A stretch of DNA of 64,000 bases from a virus. Positions 3-63,404 of the stretch are shown here, piece after piece (positions within the stretch are counted from its first letter, which is position 1; every line of letters begins with the position of its first letter). Made by a program: the position numbers and the translations under genes. Below the pieces are notes generated by a model. That model was not told the DNA's origin. It saw only the letters and a list, made by a program, of their open reading frames with translations, and made no database searches. The stretch spans positions 110,137-174,136 of IMG/VR virus record IMGVR_UViG_3300013102_000030; one strand, given 5' to 3'.

Positions 3-1037
3 GGTATCTGGGCTGACCTTCTACGCGGAAAGGGAGTCAGCAAGCGCAACATCCACGCAGTGGAGATCTTTGAGCCGTACATCTCCCGGTTCGGTCTGGA
101 AGAGAAGTACAGCAAGATCTACCTAGGCGACTTCCAGACGCTGGGAATCCGTACCGATTACTACAACGTACTCATCATGGGTGACGTTCTGGAGCACTTC
201 AAGATGGAAGATGCCCTGAAAGTCTGGGAGAAGGCTCGACAGATCGTCGGCCCTCAGGGCATTGTCCTGCTATCAACCCCCATCATCGACTTCCCGCAGG
301 GTGAGGAAGAGGGGAACATCCACGAAGCACACCTGTCAGCGTTCGACATGGAAGCGCTCAAGGGCCTCTCAGGAGTCTACGGACACGCTGAGGGTACAAT
401 CATCGGCTCTATCGCTGCAAAGGGCGCAGATACGCCTGTAGCGCAGGATCTGAGTGTCCTGATCACCACCATCCCGACCCGGTCTGAACTCATGGTGGAG
501 GCTCATCGGAGTGTAATCCAGCAGTCCCTTCTTCCCAAAGAGATCATTGTTCAGGAGGACACCGAAAGACTAGGAGCGCCCGGCAACCGTGATGCCGGTA
601 TCGACAAGGTCAAGACGAAATACGTCGCGCTGCTGGATGACGATGACTACTTCTACCCGGACCACTTGGAAACACTATACCAAACTGCGCTTGACACAGA
701 TGCAGACATTGTGTATTCTTGGTTCGACGTTGACGGTGGAGAAGACCCCTTCCCGGAGAACTTTGGAAAGCCTTGGAACCCCAAGAAACCTGTCCAGACG
801 ACCGTAACTGTTCTTGCCAAGACCGATGTCATCCGCAAAGCCGGTGGATACACCAACAAATTCGATCTGAACATGGATGCTCTGGGTGAAATTGCCCAAG
901 GGAGCACTGCTGGAGAAGATTACCGAATGGTTTTCAATGCCAATTCTCAGGGTGCCAAGATCGTCCATGTGCCCAAAAAGACATGGGCCTACAGGCATCA
1001 CGATTCCAACACGTCAGGACACTCTGACCGCTGGTAA
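3..1037 (+). CDS. SAM-methyltransferase / GT-A (family 2-like) glycosyltransferase fusion, 5' partial
   Basis: Frame open back to window edge (GIWADLLRG...HAVEIFEPY); MTase-like VLIMGDVLEH; C-half VLITTIP...RDAG...ALLDDDDYF (DxD), EDY. Confidence 0.8.
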   Translation, partial: GIWADLLRGKGVSKRNIHAVEIFEPYISRFGLEEKYSKIYLGDFQTLGIRTDYYNVLIMGDVLEHFKMEDALKVWEKARQIVGPQGIVLLSTPIIDFPQGEEEGNIHEAHLSAFDMEALKGLSGVYGHAEGTIIGSIAAKGADTPVAQDLSVLITTIPTRSELMVEAHRSVIQQSLLPKEIIVQEDTERLGAPGNRDAGIDKVKTKYVALLDDDDYFYPDHLETLYQTALDTDADIVYSWFDVDGGEDPFPENFGKPWNPKKPVQTTVTVLAKTDVIRKAGGYTNKFDLNMDALGEIAQGSTAGEDYRMVFNANSQGAKIVHVPKKTWAYRHHDSNTSGHSDRW

Positions 1038-1111
1038 GATAAGTATGCTGACTGGATAAATCCACATGGTACACTGGTTGGGGAGGCTCCATCACCAACT
1101 GGAGAATAATC

Positions 1112-1405
1112 ATGACCAAACCAGACTACGCTCTAGAGTACGTCTTTCGACGTAGCCAGTTCAACCGTACCATGTGGATTCTTGTCGCTATCTGGGTGGC
1201 ACTGCGCCTTTGCCGTGCCCTCATTATCCTCACTGTGGGACTCACATGGCTTGCGTCTATCCCTGCCATGATCATCTTCTGGGGATCAGGTCTCATCTGT
1301 GGACTGATCCTTGCCACATACTATGTATACCGCCGCTCCGTGCGTATTGATTCAATCGAGCGCGAGAGGAGTAACATAGCCAAGCTAAAAGAAAAGGTAA
1401 AATGA
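1112..1405 (+). CDS. membrane protein
   Basis: GGAG RBS; two hydrophobic segments. Confidence 0.7.
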   Translation: MTKPDYALEYVFRRSQFNRTMWILVAIWVALRLCRALIILTVGLTWLASIPAMIIFWGSGLICGLILATYYVYRRSVRIDSIERERSNIAKLKEKVK

Positions 1406-2586
1406 CCGAAACGTACATCTTTGACCTCATCAATGGTGCAGAGCTTTTCAAGATGCAGCAGGAAGGCCGCATCAACCGACAGGTTCACCCTAAGCTTCCG
1501 ATCTCCATCTTCAACTACACAGCCGCAGCACAGTTCAAGAACATCTGGACTGACGCTGAGCGGATCTGCCGTGGCTTGATCATTGAGGACGGAACCGGTA
1601 AGGTGATTGCCCGTGGACCGTCCAAGTTCATGAACTATGGTGACCCCAAGGCTGCTGAAGTCTCTCTGGAGGACGAGGTCTGGGTTACCCGGAAGGAAGA
1701 CGGCTCCCTAGGCATCGGCTGGGAGTACAATGGTGAGTTTGGTGTTGCTACCCGTGGTTCCTTTGACTCTCCTCAGGCACGACACGCTACGGCCAAGCTG
1801 ACTGAGGAAGAAAAGCAGGACATCCTGAGTGAGCGCACCAAGGGCCGAACCGCCATCTGGGAGATTGTCTACCCTGACAACCGAATTGTCCTAGACTATG
1901 GTGATAGGGATGAACTGATCAAGATCGGTGGAGTCCGCAACGATTCCGGCCTCATCTCTTTGCGCCCTTTCAAGCTCTTCATGTCCATCCGCAAGGGTGG
2001 AAATCCCGTGATGACCTTCAAGGAAGCCCTTGAGCTTCCAATTCCGGATGACCAAGAGGGTTATGTCATTGACATCCTGAAGGACGGATGGATTCAAGGC
2101 CACGTCAAGCTCAAGGGTGAAGCCTACAAGCTTCTTCACGGCCTGCTGACCAACACCAACGCTCGCCGGATCTGAATGCAGCTTGCGTGGAGGGCATGCA
2201 AGGATCTTCTGCCCAACGATCCCAAAGTGATTGCGTTCCGACTCGGAAACGACCCTCGGGACTTTGAGCGGATTGACACTACCAAGACCATTGAGGAGAC
2301 CTTCCTTGAGAAGGTTCCCGATGAGTTCTACGGATGGGTGACCAAGCAAATTGACAGCATTGAAGACAATGTGTACAGTCTTACAGGTCAGGCAAAAGTC
2401 CTGATTGACAAGATTGCTGATGTCTCGGACAAGCGTGAGCGCTGGGAAATGGCCAAGGATCACCCGCTCTGCACTGAGATTCTGAGGGCTAAGAACTCTG
2501 AAGACCTCTCCGGATGCACCGTCTTGGCTTGGAAACTGTCCCGTCCGGGTGACGAGACTCCCTTCAAATCAAAGGAAGAAGACTAA
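1402..2586 (+). CDS. T4 Rnl1-like RNA ligase, interrupted by in-frame TGA at 2173-2175
   Basis: NTase motifs KEDGSLG, ATRGSF, EIV, EGYV, KLK; C-terminal helical domain continues in the same frame after NARRI*MQL. Confidence 0.85.
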
Positions 2587-2587
2587 C

Positions 2588-3082
2588 TTGAAGAAACTGA
2601 TCATTGCCGGTATTGCCGTCGCAGCGCTCGCGCTCACTGGATGTGGGGCCTCCGGCAGTCGCGGCTTTGAGAGTGACGATTACGACTACGGCGGATACTC
2701 CAGCAATGGAGGATGGACCGACTCTGATTGGGACATGGACCGAACAACGGTCTATAACAACAACACGTACTGCCAAGGCGGAACGTACATGCCTCTGGCA
2801 AACAACCAGTACTCGTGCAACCGGAACGGAGTCGTCACGGCTCCTCTGGTCCGTCCCAAGCAGATCATACCTCCCAAGTCCCAGCAGAAGGCTCCTGCCG
2901 ACGTTCTGAAGCGAGTGGAGCAGCAGAAGGCTGAACGCCTGAAGCAGCGTCAGGAAGCTGCAAAGAAAGCTGAGCAGCAGAAGCAGCAACAACAATCACA
3001 GAAGAATGCCCCAGCGCAGAAGGCACCGGCTCCCGCCAAGCCTCCTGCTCCTGCAAAGGCTCCTCCTGCCAAATCCAAGTAG
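2588..3082 (+). CDS. lipoprotein with Q/K/P/A-rich tail
   Basis: TTG start; MKKLIIAGIAVAALALTG-C lipobox. Confidence 0.75.
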   Translation: MKKLIIAGIAVAALALTGCGASGSRGFESDDYDYGGYSSNGGWTDSDWDMDRTTVYNNNTYCQGGTYMPLANNQYSCNRNGVVTAPLVRPKQIIPPKSQQKAPADVLKRVEQQKAERLKQRQEAAKKAEQQKQQQQSQKNAPAQKAPAPAKPPAPAKAPPAKSK

Positions 3083-3091
3083 AAAGAGAAA

Positions 3092-4042
3092 ATGCTAAAC
3101 CCTAACCAAGAACTTCTGATCCTGCGCGGTTTGCAGGGTTCAGGTAAGACCACCTTCGCCCACCAGTGGGTAGCTGAAGATCCGGACTGGCGCTTCCGTG
3201 TCAACCGGGATGACCTCCGCAAGCAGGGCTACAACATGCTGTGGGGCCTGTCAAACCACATGGAGGGAACAATCTCCCTCATGGAGGAAGCCTGCGCCAA
3301 GGCAGCGCTCGCGGCTGGTTTGTCTGTCGTCATCGACGCAACGAACCTCAAGGCCCGTACCGTGAAGGAATGGTACGCAGTAGCTGAAAAGGCCGGAGTT
3401 CCCGTCCGTGTCCATGACATCGACACTCCTCTTGACATATGCATCGAGAGGGACAAGAATAGGGAGAAGAAGGTTGGCGAAGATGTCATCCGACGCTACA
3501 ACGACCGGTTCTTCCAGAAGGGGAAGCTGCCACCGGTTCCCGAGAATGTCAAGAAGGAAGGAGTTTCTGTGCAAGGCCGAGCTTACGTACCGAATCCTGA
3601 CCTTCCAAAGGCTATCTGGGTTGACGTTGACGGCACGCTGGCTGAGAGGGTCCATCCCGGAGCCAACCAGCCTGTCCGTGGACCGTTTGACGAAGACCGA
3701 GTGATGGAAGACGCACCGATCCCACACATCGTGGAACTGGTCCGAATCCTTCACGCTGCCGGATTCAAGATCGTCATCATGTCCGGACGTACAGATGGAT
3801 GCAAGGCTCTTACGGAACAGTGGCTCATCGAGCACGCTATCCCGTACGACGACATCTTCATGCGCCGTACCGTAGAAGATAAGAACCGCAAGGACAACAT
3901 TGTCAAGCACGACCTCTTCTGGGCGAACGTTGCCCCGAAGTACAATGTGGTCTACGCACTGGATGACCGTCAGCAGGTTGTTGACTTCACCCGTGATGTC
4001 CTGAAGATCCCTGTGTTGCAGGTAGCTCCCGGACTGTTCTGA
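3092..4042 (+). CDS. pseT: polynucleotide 5'-kinase/3'-phosphatase (T4 PseT-like)
   Basis: P-loop GLQGSGKT, RDDLR, DATN; HAD phosphatase DVDGT, SGR, K, DDR. Confidence 0.92.
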   Translation: MLNPNQELLILRGLQGSGKTTFAHQWVAEDPDWRFRVNRDDLRKQGYNMLWGLSNHMEGTISLMEEACAKAALAAGLSVVIDATNLKARTVKEWYAVAEKAGVPVRVHDIDTPLDICIERDKNREKKVGEDVIRRYNDRFFQKGKLPPVPENVKKEGVSVQGRAYVPNPDLPKAIWVDVDGTLAERVHPGANQPVRGPFDEDRVMEDAPIPHIVELVRILHAAGFKIVIMSGRTDGCKALTEQWLIEHAIPYDDIFMRRTVEDKNRKDNIVKHDLFWANVAPKYNVVYALDDRQQVVDFTRDVLKIPVLQVAPGLF

Positions 4043-4050
4043 TTCGACAC

Positions 4051-4093
4051 AAAGCAGGTTGAGAGGTATGATTATCTCTCAACCTGCTTTTCT
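4051..4093. terminator. intrinsic terminator with embedded promoter
   Basis: 15-bp perfect stem AAAGCAGGTTGAGAG/CTCTCAACCTGCTTT; TCGACA(4044)-N17-TATGAT(4067). Confidence 0.75.
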
Positions 4094-4110
4094 ATCATCT
4101 AAGGAGAAAT

Positions 4111-4431
4111 ATGACCACCGAAGTCATTGAGAAGGAACAAGAAGAGGCCACCGAAGTCTCCGACGAACTCAAGGTCATCGAGCTTGAGGCCAACAGCAAG
4201 AAGTTTGAATTCGATACCCGCCATCGTTGTGACCACAGCGGTGTTGAAGGTACCAGCACGTCCTGCGGTGCACAGGCATATATCCGTGCCACGCTGAAGA
4301 ACGGTGACACCCTCATCTTCTGCTCCCACCATGCCAACGAAGTAGAGGCCGCTCTGAAGCCGCTCTGCTCCGAATGGTACTCAGAGACCAGCCGCCTTGT
4401 CCATGACCGCAAGAAGGGATCAGAGAACTGA
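4111..4431 (+). CDS. small Zn-binding protein (actinobacterial RCD..CGAQAY..FC.HH type)
   Basis: AAGGAG RBS; Cys/His motif. Confidence 0.7.
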   Translation: MTTEVIEKEQEEATEVSDELKVIELEANSKKFEFDTRHRCDHSGVEGTSTSCGAQAYIRATLKNGDTLIFCSHHANEVEAALKPLCSEWYSETSRLVHDRKKGSEN

Positions 4432-5255
4432 CCACGATACTATATCCCGGACCATCCGCTCCAACGTACTTTCCTCACGTAGAGGGTCGCACCTTTGAAG
4501 AGGAACTGCTGAAAGGCTTGATTACTCCACCTGATATCAAGATCTACCTTGTAGGTGGAGCCGTACGTGAGATCACCCGTGGATTCCCTGAGAAGGTCAA
4601 GGACTGGGATTTTGCTGTGGAGGCTCCGAGCTACGAAGGTATGAAGCAGTGGCTGGATCACAAGGGCTTTGAGATCTTCGTTGAGACTCCGCAGTACTTC
4701 ACCATCCGCGCCCGAGCGCCCAAGGGACTCTTCAAGTTCGCTGGAATCGACATGTCACACAAGACGTTCGACTTCACGCTCTGCCGCACTGAAGGTGAGT
4801 ACTCAGACGGACGACGGCCTGATGAAGTCAAGCCCGGAACCCTGCTGGAAGATCTCTCGCGCCGTGACTTCACGATGAACGCAATGGCGCTGGATTCCCG
4901 TGGGACGGTCATAGATCCGTTTGGTGGTCAACAGGACATCAAGGATAAACTGATTCGTCTGGTAGGTGGTACAGACCGCCTGAAGGAGGACTCCTTGAGG
5001 ATGCTCCGTGCCATCCGCTTTGCTGTCCAGCTTGACTTTGAGATGGATAATGATGTCTACGCCTTCCTCTTCAAGGAAGATAATGCAGAACTTCTGAAGA
5101 ACGTTGACGAAAATCGAATCCGTGATGAACTCACCAAGTGCTTCAAGATCGACACGCTGGAAACCCTGTGGATGCTCCAGAGCTTCCCTGCTATTGCGGA
5201 CAGATGCTTCAGAGGAGACATCTGGCTCATGCCCACCGTCAAGGGAGCTAAGTGA
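4428..5255 (+). CDS. CCA-adding/poly(A) polymerase-type tRNA nucleotidyltransferase (start CTG 4428 or TTG 4518)
   Basis: LVGGAVR, DWDF, EDLSRRDFTMNAMA, EDSLRMLRAIRF. Confidence 0.9.
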   Translation: MTTILYPGPSAPTYFPHVEGRTFEEELLKGLITPPDIKIYLVGGAVREITRGFPEKVKDWDFAVEAPSYEGMKQWLDHKGFEIFVETPQYFTIRARAPKGLFKFAGIDMSHKTFDFTLCRTEGEYSDGRRPDEVKPGTLLEDLSRRDFTMNAMALDSRGTVIDPFGGQQDIKDKLIRLVGGTDRLKEDSLRMLRAIRFAVQLDFEMDNDVYAFLFKEDNAELLKNVDENRIRDELTKCFKIDTLETLWMLQSFPAIADRCFRGDIWLMPTVKGAK

Positions 5256-5398
5256 CACCAGACCAAGAGCAAGAAAAACAAATCAACTACACTCAATTTC
5301 GACTTGACGAACTGAAGGTACGTCGTGATAAGATCGATGAAGAGATTGCCTACGAGCAGCGAGTGCTAGACAAGCTGCTCGGAGGAGTGGTAGAATAG
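5252..5398 (+). CDS. small coiled-coil hypothetical protein
   Basis: GTGA overlap, 48 aa, fills gap. Confidence 0.55.
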   Translation: MTPDQEQEKQINYTQFRLDELKVRRDKIDEEIAYEQRVLDKLLGGVVE

Positions 5399-5435
5399 TG
5401 TAGTAAGTCCTCACCAGAGGAAACTACCACAGTAA

Positions 5436-6716
5436 GTGACAAACATGGCAACAACCGTAGTTCTGGACACATCCGTTCTCCTCTCCGCAGGAAGGACGGC
5501 ACTGTATTCCTTTGGTGAAAACAACGTAGTCCTCCCCCTCGTAGTTGTAAGTGAGCTTGAGAAAAAGCGCAATGACCCGGATCTTGGTCTCGCGTCTCGC
5601 TCCGTTCTACGGGAGCTTGATATCCTCCGGTCACAGGGGGATTTGGCTAATGGAGTCTCCCTAGGGGAGGACTACGGCACACTTCGTGTTGAAATCAACA
5701 ACACTCACAATGTACCACTCGCGGTTCAGAACCGTAAGACTAACGATGCCGAGATCATCACAGTAGCACACAACCTTGGACGATTCCAAACGGTTGTGCT
5801 GATCTCCAAGGATATTCCGATGAAGATCCTTGCCGACATCGTTGGTGTCGAGACAGCAGACTTTGTTCCGGCCAATATCTCCGGAGACTTCATCGATAAG
5901 ACTGAGACCTACTGGGTAACGGCGGAAGAGATCAACCAGATTCACGAACACGGAACTGTCCGTCTGACTCTGGATGTGCCCCGCAACGTTGGTGTCATCC
6001 TTCGCTCCGAAGAGAATCCCAAGAATACAGCCCTTGCCATTGCAGGACCGGAGTTCAAGTTCAACAAGGTTCAGTCCTTCAACGTTTCCGGACTTGAGTC
6101 CCGTTCCGCTGAGCAGGCTATCGCCATTGACTACCTGATGGATGATTCTGTCAAGATCGTCTCCCTTGGTGGCCGTGCCGGTACTGGTAAGACTACTCTA
6201 GCACTCGCTGCCGCCATTGAGCAACTACAACAGTACAAGAAGATCACGGTCTTCCGCTCCATGCACGCTGTAGGTGGAGAAGAGCTTGGATTCCTCCCCG
6301 GATCTGAGGCTGAGAAGATGGACCCTTGGACTGCTGCAATCTACGATAGTCTAAACTCATTCCTCACACCGGCCCAGATCAATGCTCTGAAGACCAAGCA
6401 GGCCATTGAGGTTCTCCCGCTGACACACATCCGTGGACGTACGCTGAACAACTTCATCATCATTGATGAGGCCCAGAACCTTGAGCGTGCCACCATCCTC
6501 ACAGCCCTCTCCCGTATGGGTAAGAACGCAAAGGCTGTCATGTCGTGGGATGTCTCCCAGCGAGACAACTTCCGCGTAGGCCGACACGATGGTGTCTATG
6601 AGGTCACCAGCCGCCTACTGGGTGAAAAGCTGTTCGCCCATACGTCCCTCCAGAAATCAGAGCGCTCACCGGCAGCAGAGCTTGTTTCCCGCAAGCTGGA
6701 TGATTTCGACATCTAA
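5436..6716 (+). CDS. phoH: PIN-domain PhoH family ATPase
   Basis: PIN VLDTSVLL..EL..ND..SKD; GRAGTGKT, LGFLPG, IRGRTL, IIDEAQN. Confidence 0.92.
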   Translation: MTNMATTVVLDTSVLLSAGRTALYSFGENNVVLPLVVVSELEKKRNDPDLGLASRSVLRELDILRSQGDLANGVSLGEDYGTLRVEINNTHNVPLAVQNRKTNDAEIITVAHNLGRFQTVVLISKDIPMKILADIVGVETADFVPANISGDFIDKTETYWVTAEEINQIHEHGTVRLTLDVPRNVGVILRSEENPKNTALAIAGPEFKFNKVQSFNVSGLESRSAEQAIAIDYLMDDSVKIVSLGGRAGTGKTTLALAAAIEQLQQYKKITVFRSMHAVGGEELGFLPGSEAEKMDPWTAAIYDSLNSFLTPAQINALKTKQAIEVLPLTHIRGRTLNNFIIIDEAQNLERATILTALSRMGKNAKAVMSWDVSQRDNFRVGRHDGVYEVTSRLLGEKLFAHTSLQKSERSPAAELVSRKLDDFDI

Positions 6717-6726
6717 CCACTACCAC

Positions 6727-6762
6727 AGAGAAGCCATCGAGTCAAACTCGGTGGCTTTTTCT
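6727..6762 (+). terminator. intrinsic terminator
   Basis: AAGCCATCGAGT-caa-ACTCGGTGGCTT followed by T run. Confidence 0.75.
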
Positions 6763-6824
6763 GTACCCGTATGGTAGAATAGGATGGACTAACTTTATGC
6801 TTCTTTACTCTTTAGGAATAGCCC

Positions 6825-7634
6825 GTGGCGCTACCAACAAACATTAGCTATGGCACAGTAGTAGGACAGTTCTTGGCCGCGATTCAAGACGGGCCTGACC
6901 CTGACAAGCTCCCAGAAGGTATCCCTATGAAGGGTACCGTCACTTTTGTGGCTTCTCCTGTCTACGTTCTAGACTACACCGCCAACCCCAACCCTGTCAC
7001 GATCCTCAAGACACCTATCACATGCTCTCTGGACTCAGAGGGCTATCTGTGTGCACCTTACTCAGCGTCTGACTCTCCTCTGTCTCGTGGAGTTCCGCTG
7101 ATTGCTACGGACGATCCTGACATCCTGCCTATCGGCTGGACATGGAGTGTCATCTATAACCTCACGGACCCGTACGGCAACCGAGCCAACCTGCCAACAC
7201 AGAACATTGCTGTTCCATCCGGAGTCACTACTGACCTTACCACAGCAATGAACATTGCTGCTGCCAACGGCTCCATCATCACCAAGGGTGCCACCGGAGA
7301 TCCCGGAGACCTTGTCGGAGTCACCAACGGAGGATCATGGGGAAGCTCCGTCACGCTTTCCGCGTACCCTCAGACCTACATCTCCACCCTGTCTGCCTCT
7401 GTCACGTCCCTGACGCTGCCTACAGAGGTCTATCCGAATGAGTCTGGAACAATCACCCTCGTACTCACTCAGGACGCTACAGGAGGCCGTACAATCACGT
7501 GGCCTGCTTCCGTCAAGTGGCCTGAGGGAATTGCTCAGCAGCCAGCAGCGGCTGCAAATTCAATTTCGGTGATTCATCTTCTTTGGACAGGAACAACATG
7601 GCTGGGAATGCTAGGAGGTAAGAGCTTTGCGTAG
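6825..7634 (+). CDS. tail-associated/fibre protein
   Basis: Actinophage-type N-terminus (YGTVVGQF..D.PD.D..P); short GxT/GxP stretch; C-term LTQDATGGRTITWP..VKW. Confidence 0.65.
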   Translation: MALPTNISYGTVVGQFLAAIQDGPDPDKLPEGIPMKGTVTFVASPVYVLDYTANPNPVTILKTPITCSLDSEGYLCAPYSASDSPLSRGVPLIATDDPDILPIGWTWSVIYNLTDPYGNRANLPTQNIAVPSGVTTDLTTAMNIAAANGSIITKGATGDPGDLVGVTNGGSWGSSVTLSAYPQTYISTLSASVTSLTLPTEVYPNESGTITLVLTQDATGGRTITWPASVKWPEGIAQQPAAAANSISVIHLLWTGTTWLGMLGGKSFA

Positions 7635-19521: not shown

Positions 19522-19585
19522 GCGTCTCCCCTCTCTGCTTGCAGGGAGGGGTTTGACGTTTCAAGGTAAATGAAAGGCTAAAGAA

Positions 19586-22426: not shown

Positions 22427-22732
22427 ATGAAAGAGAGCTATACACATATGTCAGAACTGTCCGGTGAAAAGATCGAGCGACTTCTCTGGAAGGCAGGGTG
22501 CGAAGTTGAACACAACGACGGCTTGGAAGAGATCAGCCCGATCAAGGTGACTGTGGGGGACACCGTAGTTATCATCTCGGAAGCATGGTTCGAAGAGGGA
22601 GAGTGGTTCGTTGACACTGACACCCTCACGCTGGATAAGCTGGTAGAGGGTGAGAAGGTCGATGAGGACTTGGACTTCATTGACACGGAGGAAGACCTCG
22701 TGGAACACATCCTGAAGCTGGGAGGGGAATGA
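22427..22732 (+). CDS. acidic hypothetical protein
   Basis: ORF, D/E-rich. Confidence 0.65.
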   Translation: MKESYTHMSELSGEKIERLLWKAGCEVEHNDGLEEISPIKVTVGDTVVIISEAWFEEGEWFVDTDTLTLDKLVEGEKVDEDLDFIDTEEDLVEHILKLGGE

Positions 22733-23830: not shown

Positions 23831-24105
23831 TGATTCAACCCATGCTCCCGGCACTTCCACCAGCCATGAGCCACATCCCGGCCCGATCTCCTGAGTGGAA
23901 GAGCCACGAGAACATCGGCCATGCCAAGAACGCTGTCTCCCAGAAGGTACCACTGACCTCTTGGGGAAGCCGGAGGGCAGGCGCACTGTGTGACATGCAC
24001 ATCTTCGTCTTGGAAGATGGGCAGTATGTTCCCAAGTGGGTAATCCCTCAGGGAATGCAGTTCGCTGATCTTCCATGGAAGAACGAAAAGAAGCAACGCC
24101 CTTGA
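23827..24105 (+). CDS. hypothetical protein
   Basis: ATGA overlap; K.H...GHAKNA. Confidence 0.65.
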   Translation: MMIQPMLPALPPAMSHIPARSPEWKSHENIGHAKNAVSQKVPLTSWGSRRAGALCDMHIFVLEDGQYVPKWVIPQGMQFADLPWKNEKKQRP

Positions 24106-24130
24106 CTTTCCAGTCGTGGTCCTGTAAAAT
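24102..24130 (+). promoter_or_regulatory. sigA-type promoter of putative sRNA-1
   Basis: TTGACT-N17-TAAAAT with TG extension. Confidence 0.8.
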
Positions 24131-24136
24131 GGATCA

Positions 24137-24247
24137 TGTTGGTAGCCAGTAAATCCCCTCCTAGTTTACTGGCGAACGATCCGGTTTGGTACCCGGATCG
24201 GGGAAGTCCCGCAGTTGTAGCCTTTGCTCCTGCGGGACTTCTTTTTT
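24137..24247 (+). ncRNA. putative three-hairpin small RNA (sRNA-1) with anti-Shine-Dalgarno loop
   Basis: Stems 24145-53/24165-73, 24177-84/24193-200, 24203-14/24230-41 + T6; own promoter; no RBS-led ORF. Confidence 0.7.
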
Positions 24248-24288
24248 GACCAAAATCTCTAACAGAAACAACAAGTAAAGGATCTATC

Positions 24289-24539
24289 ATTTCCACTGCA
24301 ACCATCTCCGCTCCTGCTGCCACTGCCGATCAGGAAGTGCTGCACACCACGTCTGTAAGCTGGTAGCCAACACCAGCAACTGGCGCAAAGTCGCCAAGGA
24401 TCTCATCGGTGATGAGCCTGTGACGTACGCTGAGCGGTCCAAGAAGGACACCCTGAGGAAGTTCCCCATCATCAACATCTCCTCCTCCGACAAGGAAGCT
24501 CTGGATCGCGTGTTGACAAAGGCAGCAGAGGTCGAATAG
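24289..24539 (+). pseudogene. small gene with ATT start and -1 frameshift near 24345
   Basis: AAAGGA RBS, STATISAPAATADQEVLH, then coding-like frame HVCKLVANTSNW...EVE*. Confidence 0.5.
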
Positions 24540-44182: not shown

Positions 44183-44196
44183 ACCTAGGAGGGGAA

Positions 44197-54566: not shown

Positions 54567-54970
54567 GAGTGCGTAAGTATTTCTGGCTGATCTACGCGCT
54601 GTCGGCCCTGATGATATTCGTGACGTTCGGGATCGTTGTGTCCCGACTGATAGGAGGGGTATAGTTGCCTAGAAGTGTTCTGTGGGCATTGTGTATGCTC
54701 TGGCTGGTCATCGGTGTATTGTTCGGAGTGGGAATCACTCTGCTGACGAGAGGGATGTAATGAGAGGGTATGGAGGATGGCTGCTGGTCTGCCTGTTGTG
54801 CTGGCTCGGTGGAGGGTTGTTCTGGATCGGTGTGACCGGATTGGTGGGTCGCTGATGGCTCGTAGGCGGTTGACTAAGGCTCAGTGGGAGCGTGTGTCGA
54901 TGTGGCTGGCGGTGGTGCAGGTCGTGGCGCTGCTCGGTTTTGTCGTGTCCATGCTCATGCACTGGTAGTG

Positions 54971-63203: not shown

Positions 63204-63404
63204 ATGATGCGGATCTCAATGATCGTTATTGTCTTTGTCCAGCTTGCCGTCTTCTTCATTCTCTCCGGTTCCACAGGAACCTATAACCACACTGTCAAGG
63301 CTGTCTACGAACAACCGGCCATGCCGTCAGATCCTGACGATGATGAAGACGAGAACCGCGTGCGGGTAAGACGGAATGCGGATGCGGTTACAAATCTTTC
63401 ATAG
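63204..63404 (+). CDS. small membrane/secreted protein, leaderless
   Basis: TAGGCT 6 nt before ATG; N-TM. Confidence 0.5.
   Translation: MMRISMIVIVFVQLAVFFILSGSTGTYNHTVKAVYEQPAMPSDPDDDEDENRVRVRRNADAVTNLS

Follow-up and report, generated by a model that had tools for sequence, protein, structure and literature searches.

A conserved structured RNA encoded by an actinophage-related virus and its candidate regulon of terminal-repeat genes

We found that the element at positions 24102-24247 of a 64-kb stretch of viral DNA (the window; bases 110137-174136 of a 174,136-bp IMG/VR virus record) is a real, conserved structured RNA, well beyond chance, based on its conservation and covariation in 17 distinct homologs. 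We propose, with about even confidence, that this RNA of ~110 nt acts in trans as an anti-Shine-Dalgarno (anti-SD) RNA that would silence about 20-30 genes located in the terminal repeat of the phage genome and presumably expressed early. From comparisons of phage genomes, we infer the production of the RNA, its pairing with mRNAs in vivo, the repression, and the timing of that repression.

A conserved structured RNA with a host-type promoter

The RNA is predicted to be its own transcription unit, made from a host-type (sigma-A-like) promoter. The initial annotation described a complete unit here, and its promoter (TTGACT-N17-TAAAAT, 24102-24130), its three hairpins, and the run of six T residues ending at 24247 are all present, on the + strand. 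The –35 box, TTGACT (24102-24107), and the –10 box, TAAAAT (24125-24130), are separated by 17 nt and together make up the top sigma-70-like promoter-like site in the 18-30 kb region of the window. The –35 box is TTGAC[AT] in 17/17 homologs, and the –10 box is TAnnnT in all of them, 17 or 18 nt further on and ending 6-7 nt 5' of an invariant GUUGGUA. Based on this spacing, the RNA most likely starts at, or one base before, the first G of that motif.

A TACCAAC-like copy is found in the promoter spacer at some loci (L004:2465-2508, L011, L059, and L084), where it forms an inverted repeat with the GTTGGTA at +1, across the –10 box. The TACCAAC-like copy itself is upstream of the transcript, and the repeat is a possible operator.

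The predicted transcript begins at 24138 and extends through the U tract to 24247; it is a 110-nt non-coding RNA that matches our covariance model with a score of 119 bits. The minimum free energy of the RNA starting at 24138 was –54.6 kcal/mol, compared to –34.2 ± 3.6 kcal/mol for shuffled sequences (z = –5.7), and none of 200 shuffles was as good.

The RNA begins with a single-stranded GUUGGUA (24138-24144), followed by three hairpins. The 5' GUUGGUA is invariant in every homolog with an intact 5' end (L060 is truncated by the start of its contig) and is the complement of a motif, UACCAAC, found in the leaders of the cassette genes described below. Hairpin 1 (24145-24173) has a 9-bp stem (24145-24153 with 24165-24173) with compensatory changes in 3/9 pairs and 96.7% of alignment cells paired. 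Its loop, UCCCCUCCUAG (24154-24164; TCCCCTCCTAG as DNA, the sequence and position reported in the initial annotation), contains the putative anti-SD seed, with the conserved core CCUCCUA on the 3' side of the loop. Hairpin 2 (24177-24200) has an invariant loop, UUUGGUAC (24185-24192), that contains a second UUGGUA; 3/7 pairs in its stem have compensatory changes and 99.1% of cells are paired. Hairpin 3 (24201-24247) consists of a 14-bp G+C-rich stem and U6, resembling the 3' end made by an intrinsic terminator, with compensatory changes in 9/13 pairs and 99.5% of cells paired. In the folds of four homologs, unpaired probabilities were ~0.8-0.9 for the 5' end, loop 1, and loop 2.

To find homologs, we scanned viral and metagenome contigs for sequence patterns and then applied a covariance model (R1). 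The 17 distinct homologs come from the Arthrobacter phages Atuin, Racecar, and Mimi and from soil viral and metagenome contigs. The closest isolates are the ~193-kb Arthrobacter globiformis phages Racecar, Mimi, Talia1610, and Atuin, with terminases that are 77-82% identical, and BLAST placed the element in unannotated intergenic DNA in all four of these phages. In a model-guided alignment of the 17 homologs (A6), 98.6% of the cells were paired and 15/29 pairs had compensatory changes, with all three helices covarying. None of 500 shuffles of the alignment reached the observed values, and sliding the pairing partners reduced the fraction of paired cells to 31-52%. There were 25 G.U cells compared to 4 A.C cells, indicating that the + strand is the strand that folds.

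The initial annotation listed no ribosome binding site (RBS)-led open reading frame in the unit, and the homologs go further: their lengths range from 106 to 131 nt with indels that are not multiples of three, excluding a conserved open reading frame. We considered a 37-aa open reading frame at 24136-24249 and rejected it as coding, based on its unconserved start and the non-triplet indels. Compensatory changes in the helices and the absence of a common reading frame are the properties of a structured non-coding RNA.

The conserved part of loop 1 is its sequence and not its setting. The loop varies from 8 to 17 nt and is carried by a stem of variable sequence, and CCUCCUA is at its 3' side in 15 of the 17 distinct homologs, the exceptions being Atuin (CUCCUCA) and L011 (CCUCCUCCUUAG). 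The loops of the L019, L011, and L023/L084 lineages differ (ACCUCCUAC, UCCUCCUCCUUAG, and AUCUUCCUCCUAA, respectively). The conserved promoter, the covarying helices, and the fixed position of CCUCCUA support a stand-alone phage sRNA with an exposed anti-SD loop, as first proposed. The loop of hairpin 3 was a different matter. The initial annotation noted CCTTT in this loop and its complementarity to AAAGG-type RBSs such as AAAGGCTA at 19573; that sequence is indeed present, but the CCTTT is not conserved, and the apical region of hairpin 3 is variable among homologs or replaced by an extra helix. Eleven of the 17 distinct homologs have this apical extension (A6 columns 95-133, as in L005:1935-1975), which contains a covarying helix of its own along with conserved flanks, GAUGG and CUAGCUCC; it is missing in the window copy, Atuin, L019, L066, L023, and L084.

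The element did not match any Rfam family. With Rfam 15 at gathering thresholds, there were no matches in the whole window, including to 6C (RF01066) and C4 antisense RNA, and at E ≤ 10 the region 24050-24320 gave only chance-level matches (E ≥ 1.1) to unrelated eukaryotic and other models. ARAGORN found no tRNA or tmRNA genes in the window. The sRNA is single-copy, with no second copy in its own genome or in a related genome, G001, the two complete genomes that we checked. Twenty pattern matches in bacterial genomes did not pass the covariance model, and there were no homologs in the more distant phages Microbacterium Pumpernickel and Zooman, Gordonia Sixama, and DSL-LC01. The 3' end of actinobacterial 16S rRNA shares GGUAGCC and CCUCCU with the sRNA; the probability of such a 7-mer match arising by chance is about one in four, and we dropped the idea that the sRNA mimics the rRNA 3' end.

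The gene directly downstream (24283-24539) encodes a small protein (...TSVKLVANTSNWRKV..LIGDEPV) and adjoins the sRNA in most relatives. In this assembly, the gene is split into two frames by a 1-nt deletion (GTAAGCTG versus GTCAAGCTG in relatives, at ~24354-24361); this may reflect an error in the assembly, a pseudogene, or recoding. Translation apparently starts at ATT here, in L023, and in L059, and at TTG in the other relatives. A 9-mer, TGGTAGCCA, that is common to the 5' end of the sRNA and the downstream gene (at 24361) is not conserved in relatives and we regard it as a coincidence.

The position of the RNA raises the alternative that it is a cis-acting leader or attenuator, with the promoter driving the downstream genes, hairpin 3 serving as a conditional terminator, and the loops binding a factor that sets the level of read-through. 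A co-oriented gene starts ~20-70 nt past hairpin 3 in every homolog examined, usually the same small NWRKV...LIGDEPV protein gene with a weak TTG or ATT start, and the U tracts are imperfect in many homologs. However, in Atuin and L019 a different gene, of 233-276 aa, follows the RNA, the window copy ends in a strong stem and U6, no mutually exclusive alternative pairing with covariation was seen, and a cis-acting leader gives no reason for the complementarity to the array leaders described below. We consider this alternative unlikely. The U tract after hairpin 3 is perfect in the window and weaker in several homologs, and in the latter there is possibly some read-through into the downstream genes.

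Complementarity between the RNA and an array of gene cassettes

The candidate targets of the sRNA are in an array of about 24-29 single-gene cassettes located at L113:1-12200, in the same genome and outside the window, and therefore could not be seen in the initial annotation of the 64 kb. In relatives, the array is at 5.4-17.4 kb in Racecar, 4.6-13 kb in Atuin, and 98.5-112 kb in G001 (the genome of locus L014). The arrays of Racecar (MN234206.2) and Atuin (OK040794.2) are located within direct terminal repeats that are exact copies, of 20,468 and 17,312 bp, respectively. The 174,136-bp record is approximately unit length, with neither its first nor its last 50-500 bases recurring at the other end. 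In a whole-genome census of GGAGG-type RBSs, 12 consecutive genes at 114-7559 of the virus's own genome had ccTAGGAGGa 4-5 nt before the start codon, and matching clusters were found in G001, G002 (the genome of L005), Racecar, and Mimi.

Each cassette has the same order of elements: a stop codon (often fused to the box that follows), a TTACAAAA[CG]TTT box, a hairpin with a TTGCA loop and a covarying stem of variable sequence, a –10-like TRTAGT, the leader, the RBS CCUAGGAGGA, and the start codon. We considered whether the TAG of CCTAGGAGG is the stop codon of the upstream gene and rejected this; most upstream open reading frames terminate ~60-260 nt before this point, and their stop codons are often fused to the TTACAAAA box. 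There are two types of leaders, a CA-rich type with UACCAAC and a type with a CUUUACUUAUCGG hairpin and UUAGGAGU. UACCAAC is in only ~30-45% of the cassette leaders, the second type lacking it. The consensus of the leader is 5'-(U)UACCAAC-N5-11-(C/U)UAGGAGGAcA-N-AUG.

The leaders appear to be a shared regulatory module. There was no paralogy among 23 array proteins by BLASTP, ruling out gene duplication as the source of the common leader. The array proteins matched no Pfam family and three PHROGs, all of unknown function. Our only grounds for presuming that the array genes are early are their location within the terminal repeat and the promoter-like sites that they carry. The box TTACAAAASTTT occurs with no more than one mismatch eight times in the window (14487, 37092, 44932, 49930, 53039, 53355, 60067, and 63388), compared to 0.28 expected, indicating that the box element is also found beyond the terminal array. 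After the copy at 63388 come a TTGACA promoter-like site and a CAACCAAC leader.

The motifs shared by the cassette leaders are complementary to the conserved unpaired segments of the sRNA. We defined cassettes by the TTACAAAA[CG]TTT box alone and counted 7-mers in the 45 nt immediately preceding the start codon. The commonest were TACCAAC and (C/T)TAGGAGG; TACCAAC ranked first in the virus's own genome and second in Atuin, and in Racecar and G001 it was outranked only by 7-mers that overlap the RBS. UACCAAC and (C/U)UAGGAGG are the reverse complements of the 5' end of the sRNA and of the core of loop 1. When complements of successive 6-mers along the sRNA were counted, signal was found in 20-60% of the cassette leaders and was almost confined to the 5' end, loop 1, and loop 2. 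For other genes it was below 10% everywhere, and the same was true in all five genomes.

Predicted duplex energies separated cassette genes from other genes. The mean energy for loop 1 was –10.6 kcal/mol on cassette genes and –6.6 kcal/mol on other genes (p = 3e-5), and only on cassette genes did loop 1 pair better than the anti-SD of 16S rRNA. Ten of the top 25 predicted targets of loop 1 were in the array, which contains 29 of the 253 genes (Fisher p = 8.5e-5), compared to three of the top 25 when genes were ranked by pairing to 16S rRNA. Several non-array genes with GGAGGG-type RBSs scored as well as array genes. The gene that starts at 6127 is an example, with a predicted energy of –12.2 kcal/mol for the pairing of CUACCAAC to GUUGGUAG and –15.3 kcal/mol for that of the RBS to loop 1. 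GUUGGUA and loop 1 are arranged on the sRNA in an order that is not colinear with the leader; colinearity is seen only for loop 1 followed by loop 2.

The targets that were initially proposed, all inside the window, fared differently. The sequences were found as described: CTAGGAGGGGA, the exact 11-nt complement of loop 1, is at 44185-44195, one base before the ATG of a 143-aa gene (44197); CTGGGAGGGGA, an 11-nt match with one G:U, is at 22718-22728 before the ATG at 22729; and TAGGAGGGG, a 9-nt match, is at 54651 before a 31-aa TTG open reading frame. As targets, however, they did not hold up. The match at 44185 is not conserved in the only ortholog (in G001), in which the RBS is UUAGGGGAGA, making this gene at best a minor extra target. 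The site at 22718 encodes the C-terminal LKLGGE* of the upstream gene, and in G001, Racecar, and Atuin it drifts synonymously and does not track the loop. The match at 54651 is not conserved in relatives. The 11-mer of loop 1 occurs four times in the window with no more than one mismatch, including the minus strand of the element itself, compared to 1.15 expected, and the initial annotation had itself cautioned that SD bias makes part of the match expected by chance; with this bias taken into account, the matches at the named RBSs do not exceed chance. We think it very unlikely that the RNA is a repressor with 44197, 22729, and 54667 as its principal targets.

Correspondence between loop 1 and the array ribosome binding sites

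The array RBSs differ from other RBSs at a position that could pair with loop 1. In the four phages with the loop CCUCCU-A, the base before AGGAG was U in 68 of 92 array RBSs. In non-array RBSs that base is mostly A, as predicted for pairing to the tail of 16S rRNA. In Atuin, with the loop CUCCUCA (CUCCU-C), the base was G in 7/17 and U in 4/17 array RBSs (Fisher p = 6e-5 and 1.2e-4). Atuin and Racecar infect the same host strain. Three orthologous genes have CCUGAGGAGG in Atuin and CCUAGGAGG or CUUAGGAG (the CCU-AGGAGG type) elsewhere.

The predicted energies followed the same pattern. On Atuin cassettes, the Atuin loop was better than other loops by ~2.1 kcal/mol; on the cassettes of the genome that includes the window, Racecar, and G001, it was worse by 1.3-1.8 kcal/mol, and there was no difference on the partial G002 genome. 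The individual paired energy tests were modest (p = 0.007-0.13). The cassettes have probably been homogenised by recombination, and the RBS counts are therefore not independent events. The covariation of loop and regulon seems to be effectively one lineage event (Atuin) among five genomes with arrays, and we regard it as supportive and not decisive.

These comparisons bear on whether the RNA is a general anti-SD RNA that titrates any strong SD, in host or in all phage mRNAs, for host shut-off or global tuning, with the array not being a specific regulon. CCUCCU is the universal anti-SD core, and a loop with this sequence pairs with any strong SD. The non-array GGAGGG-type genes that score like array genes fit with this explanation, as does the exact 11-mer at 44185, which falls outside the array. 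However, general titration does not explain the conserved A after CCUCCU (16S rRNA has U there), the array-specific U (G in Atuin) before AGGAG, or the invariant GUUGGUA and UUUGGUAC and their complements in the array leaders. We give general titration a low probability, on a par with that of the cis-acting leader.

The shared sequences could also have been conserved as DNA. GTTGGTA/TACCAAC might be an operator or protein site common to the sRNA promoter and the cassette promoters, with the RNA being mainly protein-binding or a sponge. Helices that covary as RNA, with G.U pairs on one strand, and loop 1 and its covariation with the array RBSs are not explained by a DNA site, and the window, Racecar, Atuin, and others lack the inverted repeat. 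In favor of such a site, the element begins ~7-8 nt past the –10 box in both kinds of promoters, the sRNA promoters of Mimi, L011, L059, and L084 have a TACCAAC-like copy in their spacers (weaker in L058 and L066), and 16 nt, CCGGUUUGGUACCCGG, are conserved beyond what pairing alone needs. We judge this to be slightly less probable still than the two alternatives above. None of the three (general anti-SD RNA, cis-acting leader, or operator) accounts for the relationship between loop 1 and the array RBSs.

Proposed mechanism and relation to known systems

We suggest that the sRNA silences the array by masking the cassette leaders. The RNA would be made from its sigma-A-like promoter and end at hairpin 3, and its unpaired conserved segments (GUUGGUA, loop 1 with ...CCUCCUA-R, and loop 2 UUUGGUAC) would pair with the leader shared by the cassettes. 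Loop 1 would cover the SD with 7-9 bp, more than 16S rRNA forms there, the extra pairs being with the UA at the 5' side of the leader's SD (UG in Atuin) that 16S rRNA does not match. One of the UUGGUA elements would clamp UACCAA(C) in the 5' part of the leader, near the 5' end of the mRNA. The outcome would be a block to 30S binding, and probably faster decay, for small, unrelated 'host-takeover-like' mRNAs. The promoter of the sRNA looks like one used by host RNA polymerase, so the RNA may be made as early as its proposed targets, and this counts against the logic of the timing.

Small RNAs that act through anti-SD loops are known in bacteria. In 6C/B11 RNA (Rfam RF01066), Staphylococcus aureus RNAIII, and RsaE/RoxS, exposed C-rich loops pair with the G-rich RBSs of several mRNAs, independently of Hfq, and the actinobacterial 6C/B11 and Firmicutes C-rich-loop RNAs are small, terminator-ended transcripts. 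The RNA described here is likewise predicted to be small and terminator-ended, with an anti-SD sequence exposed in a hairpin loop, and its conserved, accessible seed is complementary to the RBSs of its putative targets, as in RNAs that work like 6C, RNAIII, and RoxS. It differs from these in having no sequence or structure homology to them (no Rfam match) and in being encoded by a phage. In addition, its seed is CCUCCUA and not a run of C, it has two UUGGUA seeds, and its proposed regulon is the phage's own repeated cassette.

Among phage RNAs, the c4 antisense RNA recognizes its target in two parts and is processed from the operon under its control. The c4 RNA of P1 and P7 is structured, with loops that pair around the RBS of a phage mRNA and block translation, and it controls one antirepressor operon in temperate-phage immunity (PMC12197685). 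The colinearity of loop 1 and loop 2 with the leader recalls the two-site recognition by c4. In contrast to c4, the RNA here would be a stand-alone gene ~40 kb from a multi-gene array, and there was no match to the Rfam C4 family.

There is also a functional likeness to the T4 proteins RegB and RegA, in that many early phage mRNAs would be inactivated post-transcriptionally at the SD or initiation region. RegB does so by cleaving GGAG sequences located between early genes (PMC3014915). The T4 effectors are proteins, whereas the effector proposed here, on sequence evidence, is an RNA that would mask its targets by base pairing. The layout of the target array resembles the PeSL cassettes of T4-like phages, in which small genes of unknown function are each flanked by a composite promoter/stem-loop repeat (PMC2839356, PMC4122927), and its placement in a terminal repeat resembles that of SPO1, which has an early takeover gene cluster in its terminal redundancy (PMC6873191, PMC10531801). 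The repeat here is different, consisting of the TTACAAAA[CG]TTT box, the TTGCA-loop hairpin, the UACCAAC leader, and the CCUAGGAGGA RBS, and the hosts are actinobacteria. A dedicated sRNA for the PeSL or SPO1 modules was not described in the literature that we searched.

To our knowledge, few phage sRNAs have a defined role, and in the literature searched we found none from actinobacteriophages. Neither Rfam nor that literature contained a report of this sRNA family. Based on these comparisons, we believe that the RNA represents a new family of phage sRNAs, with a mechanism of a known kind (that of an anti-SD loop RNA) and an unusual, testable regulon.

A more far-reaching interpretation, in which our confidence falls somewhat short of even, is that one sRNA is the master switch of the entire terminal-repeat 'takeover' module of a lytic actinophage. 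A mobile leader would be doubly masked by the RNA, the array RBSs would have moved away from the 16S optimum to match the RNA, and the regulon would be co-evolving with its regulator, making the system an RNA equivalent of T4 RegB and RegA.

Comparative data alone have thus provided a well-supported RNA family and a concrete, testable regulon of orphan terminal-repeat genes. If the proposed function is correct, it would explain the uniformity of the cassette leaders and would be an RNA solution to the problem of early-to-middle shut-off, which T4 solves with RegB and RegA. It would also provide a handle with which to switch the takeover genes on or off jointly, in a set of isolates (Racecar, Mimi, and Atuin) that share one host strain.
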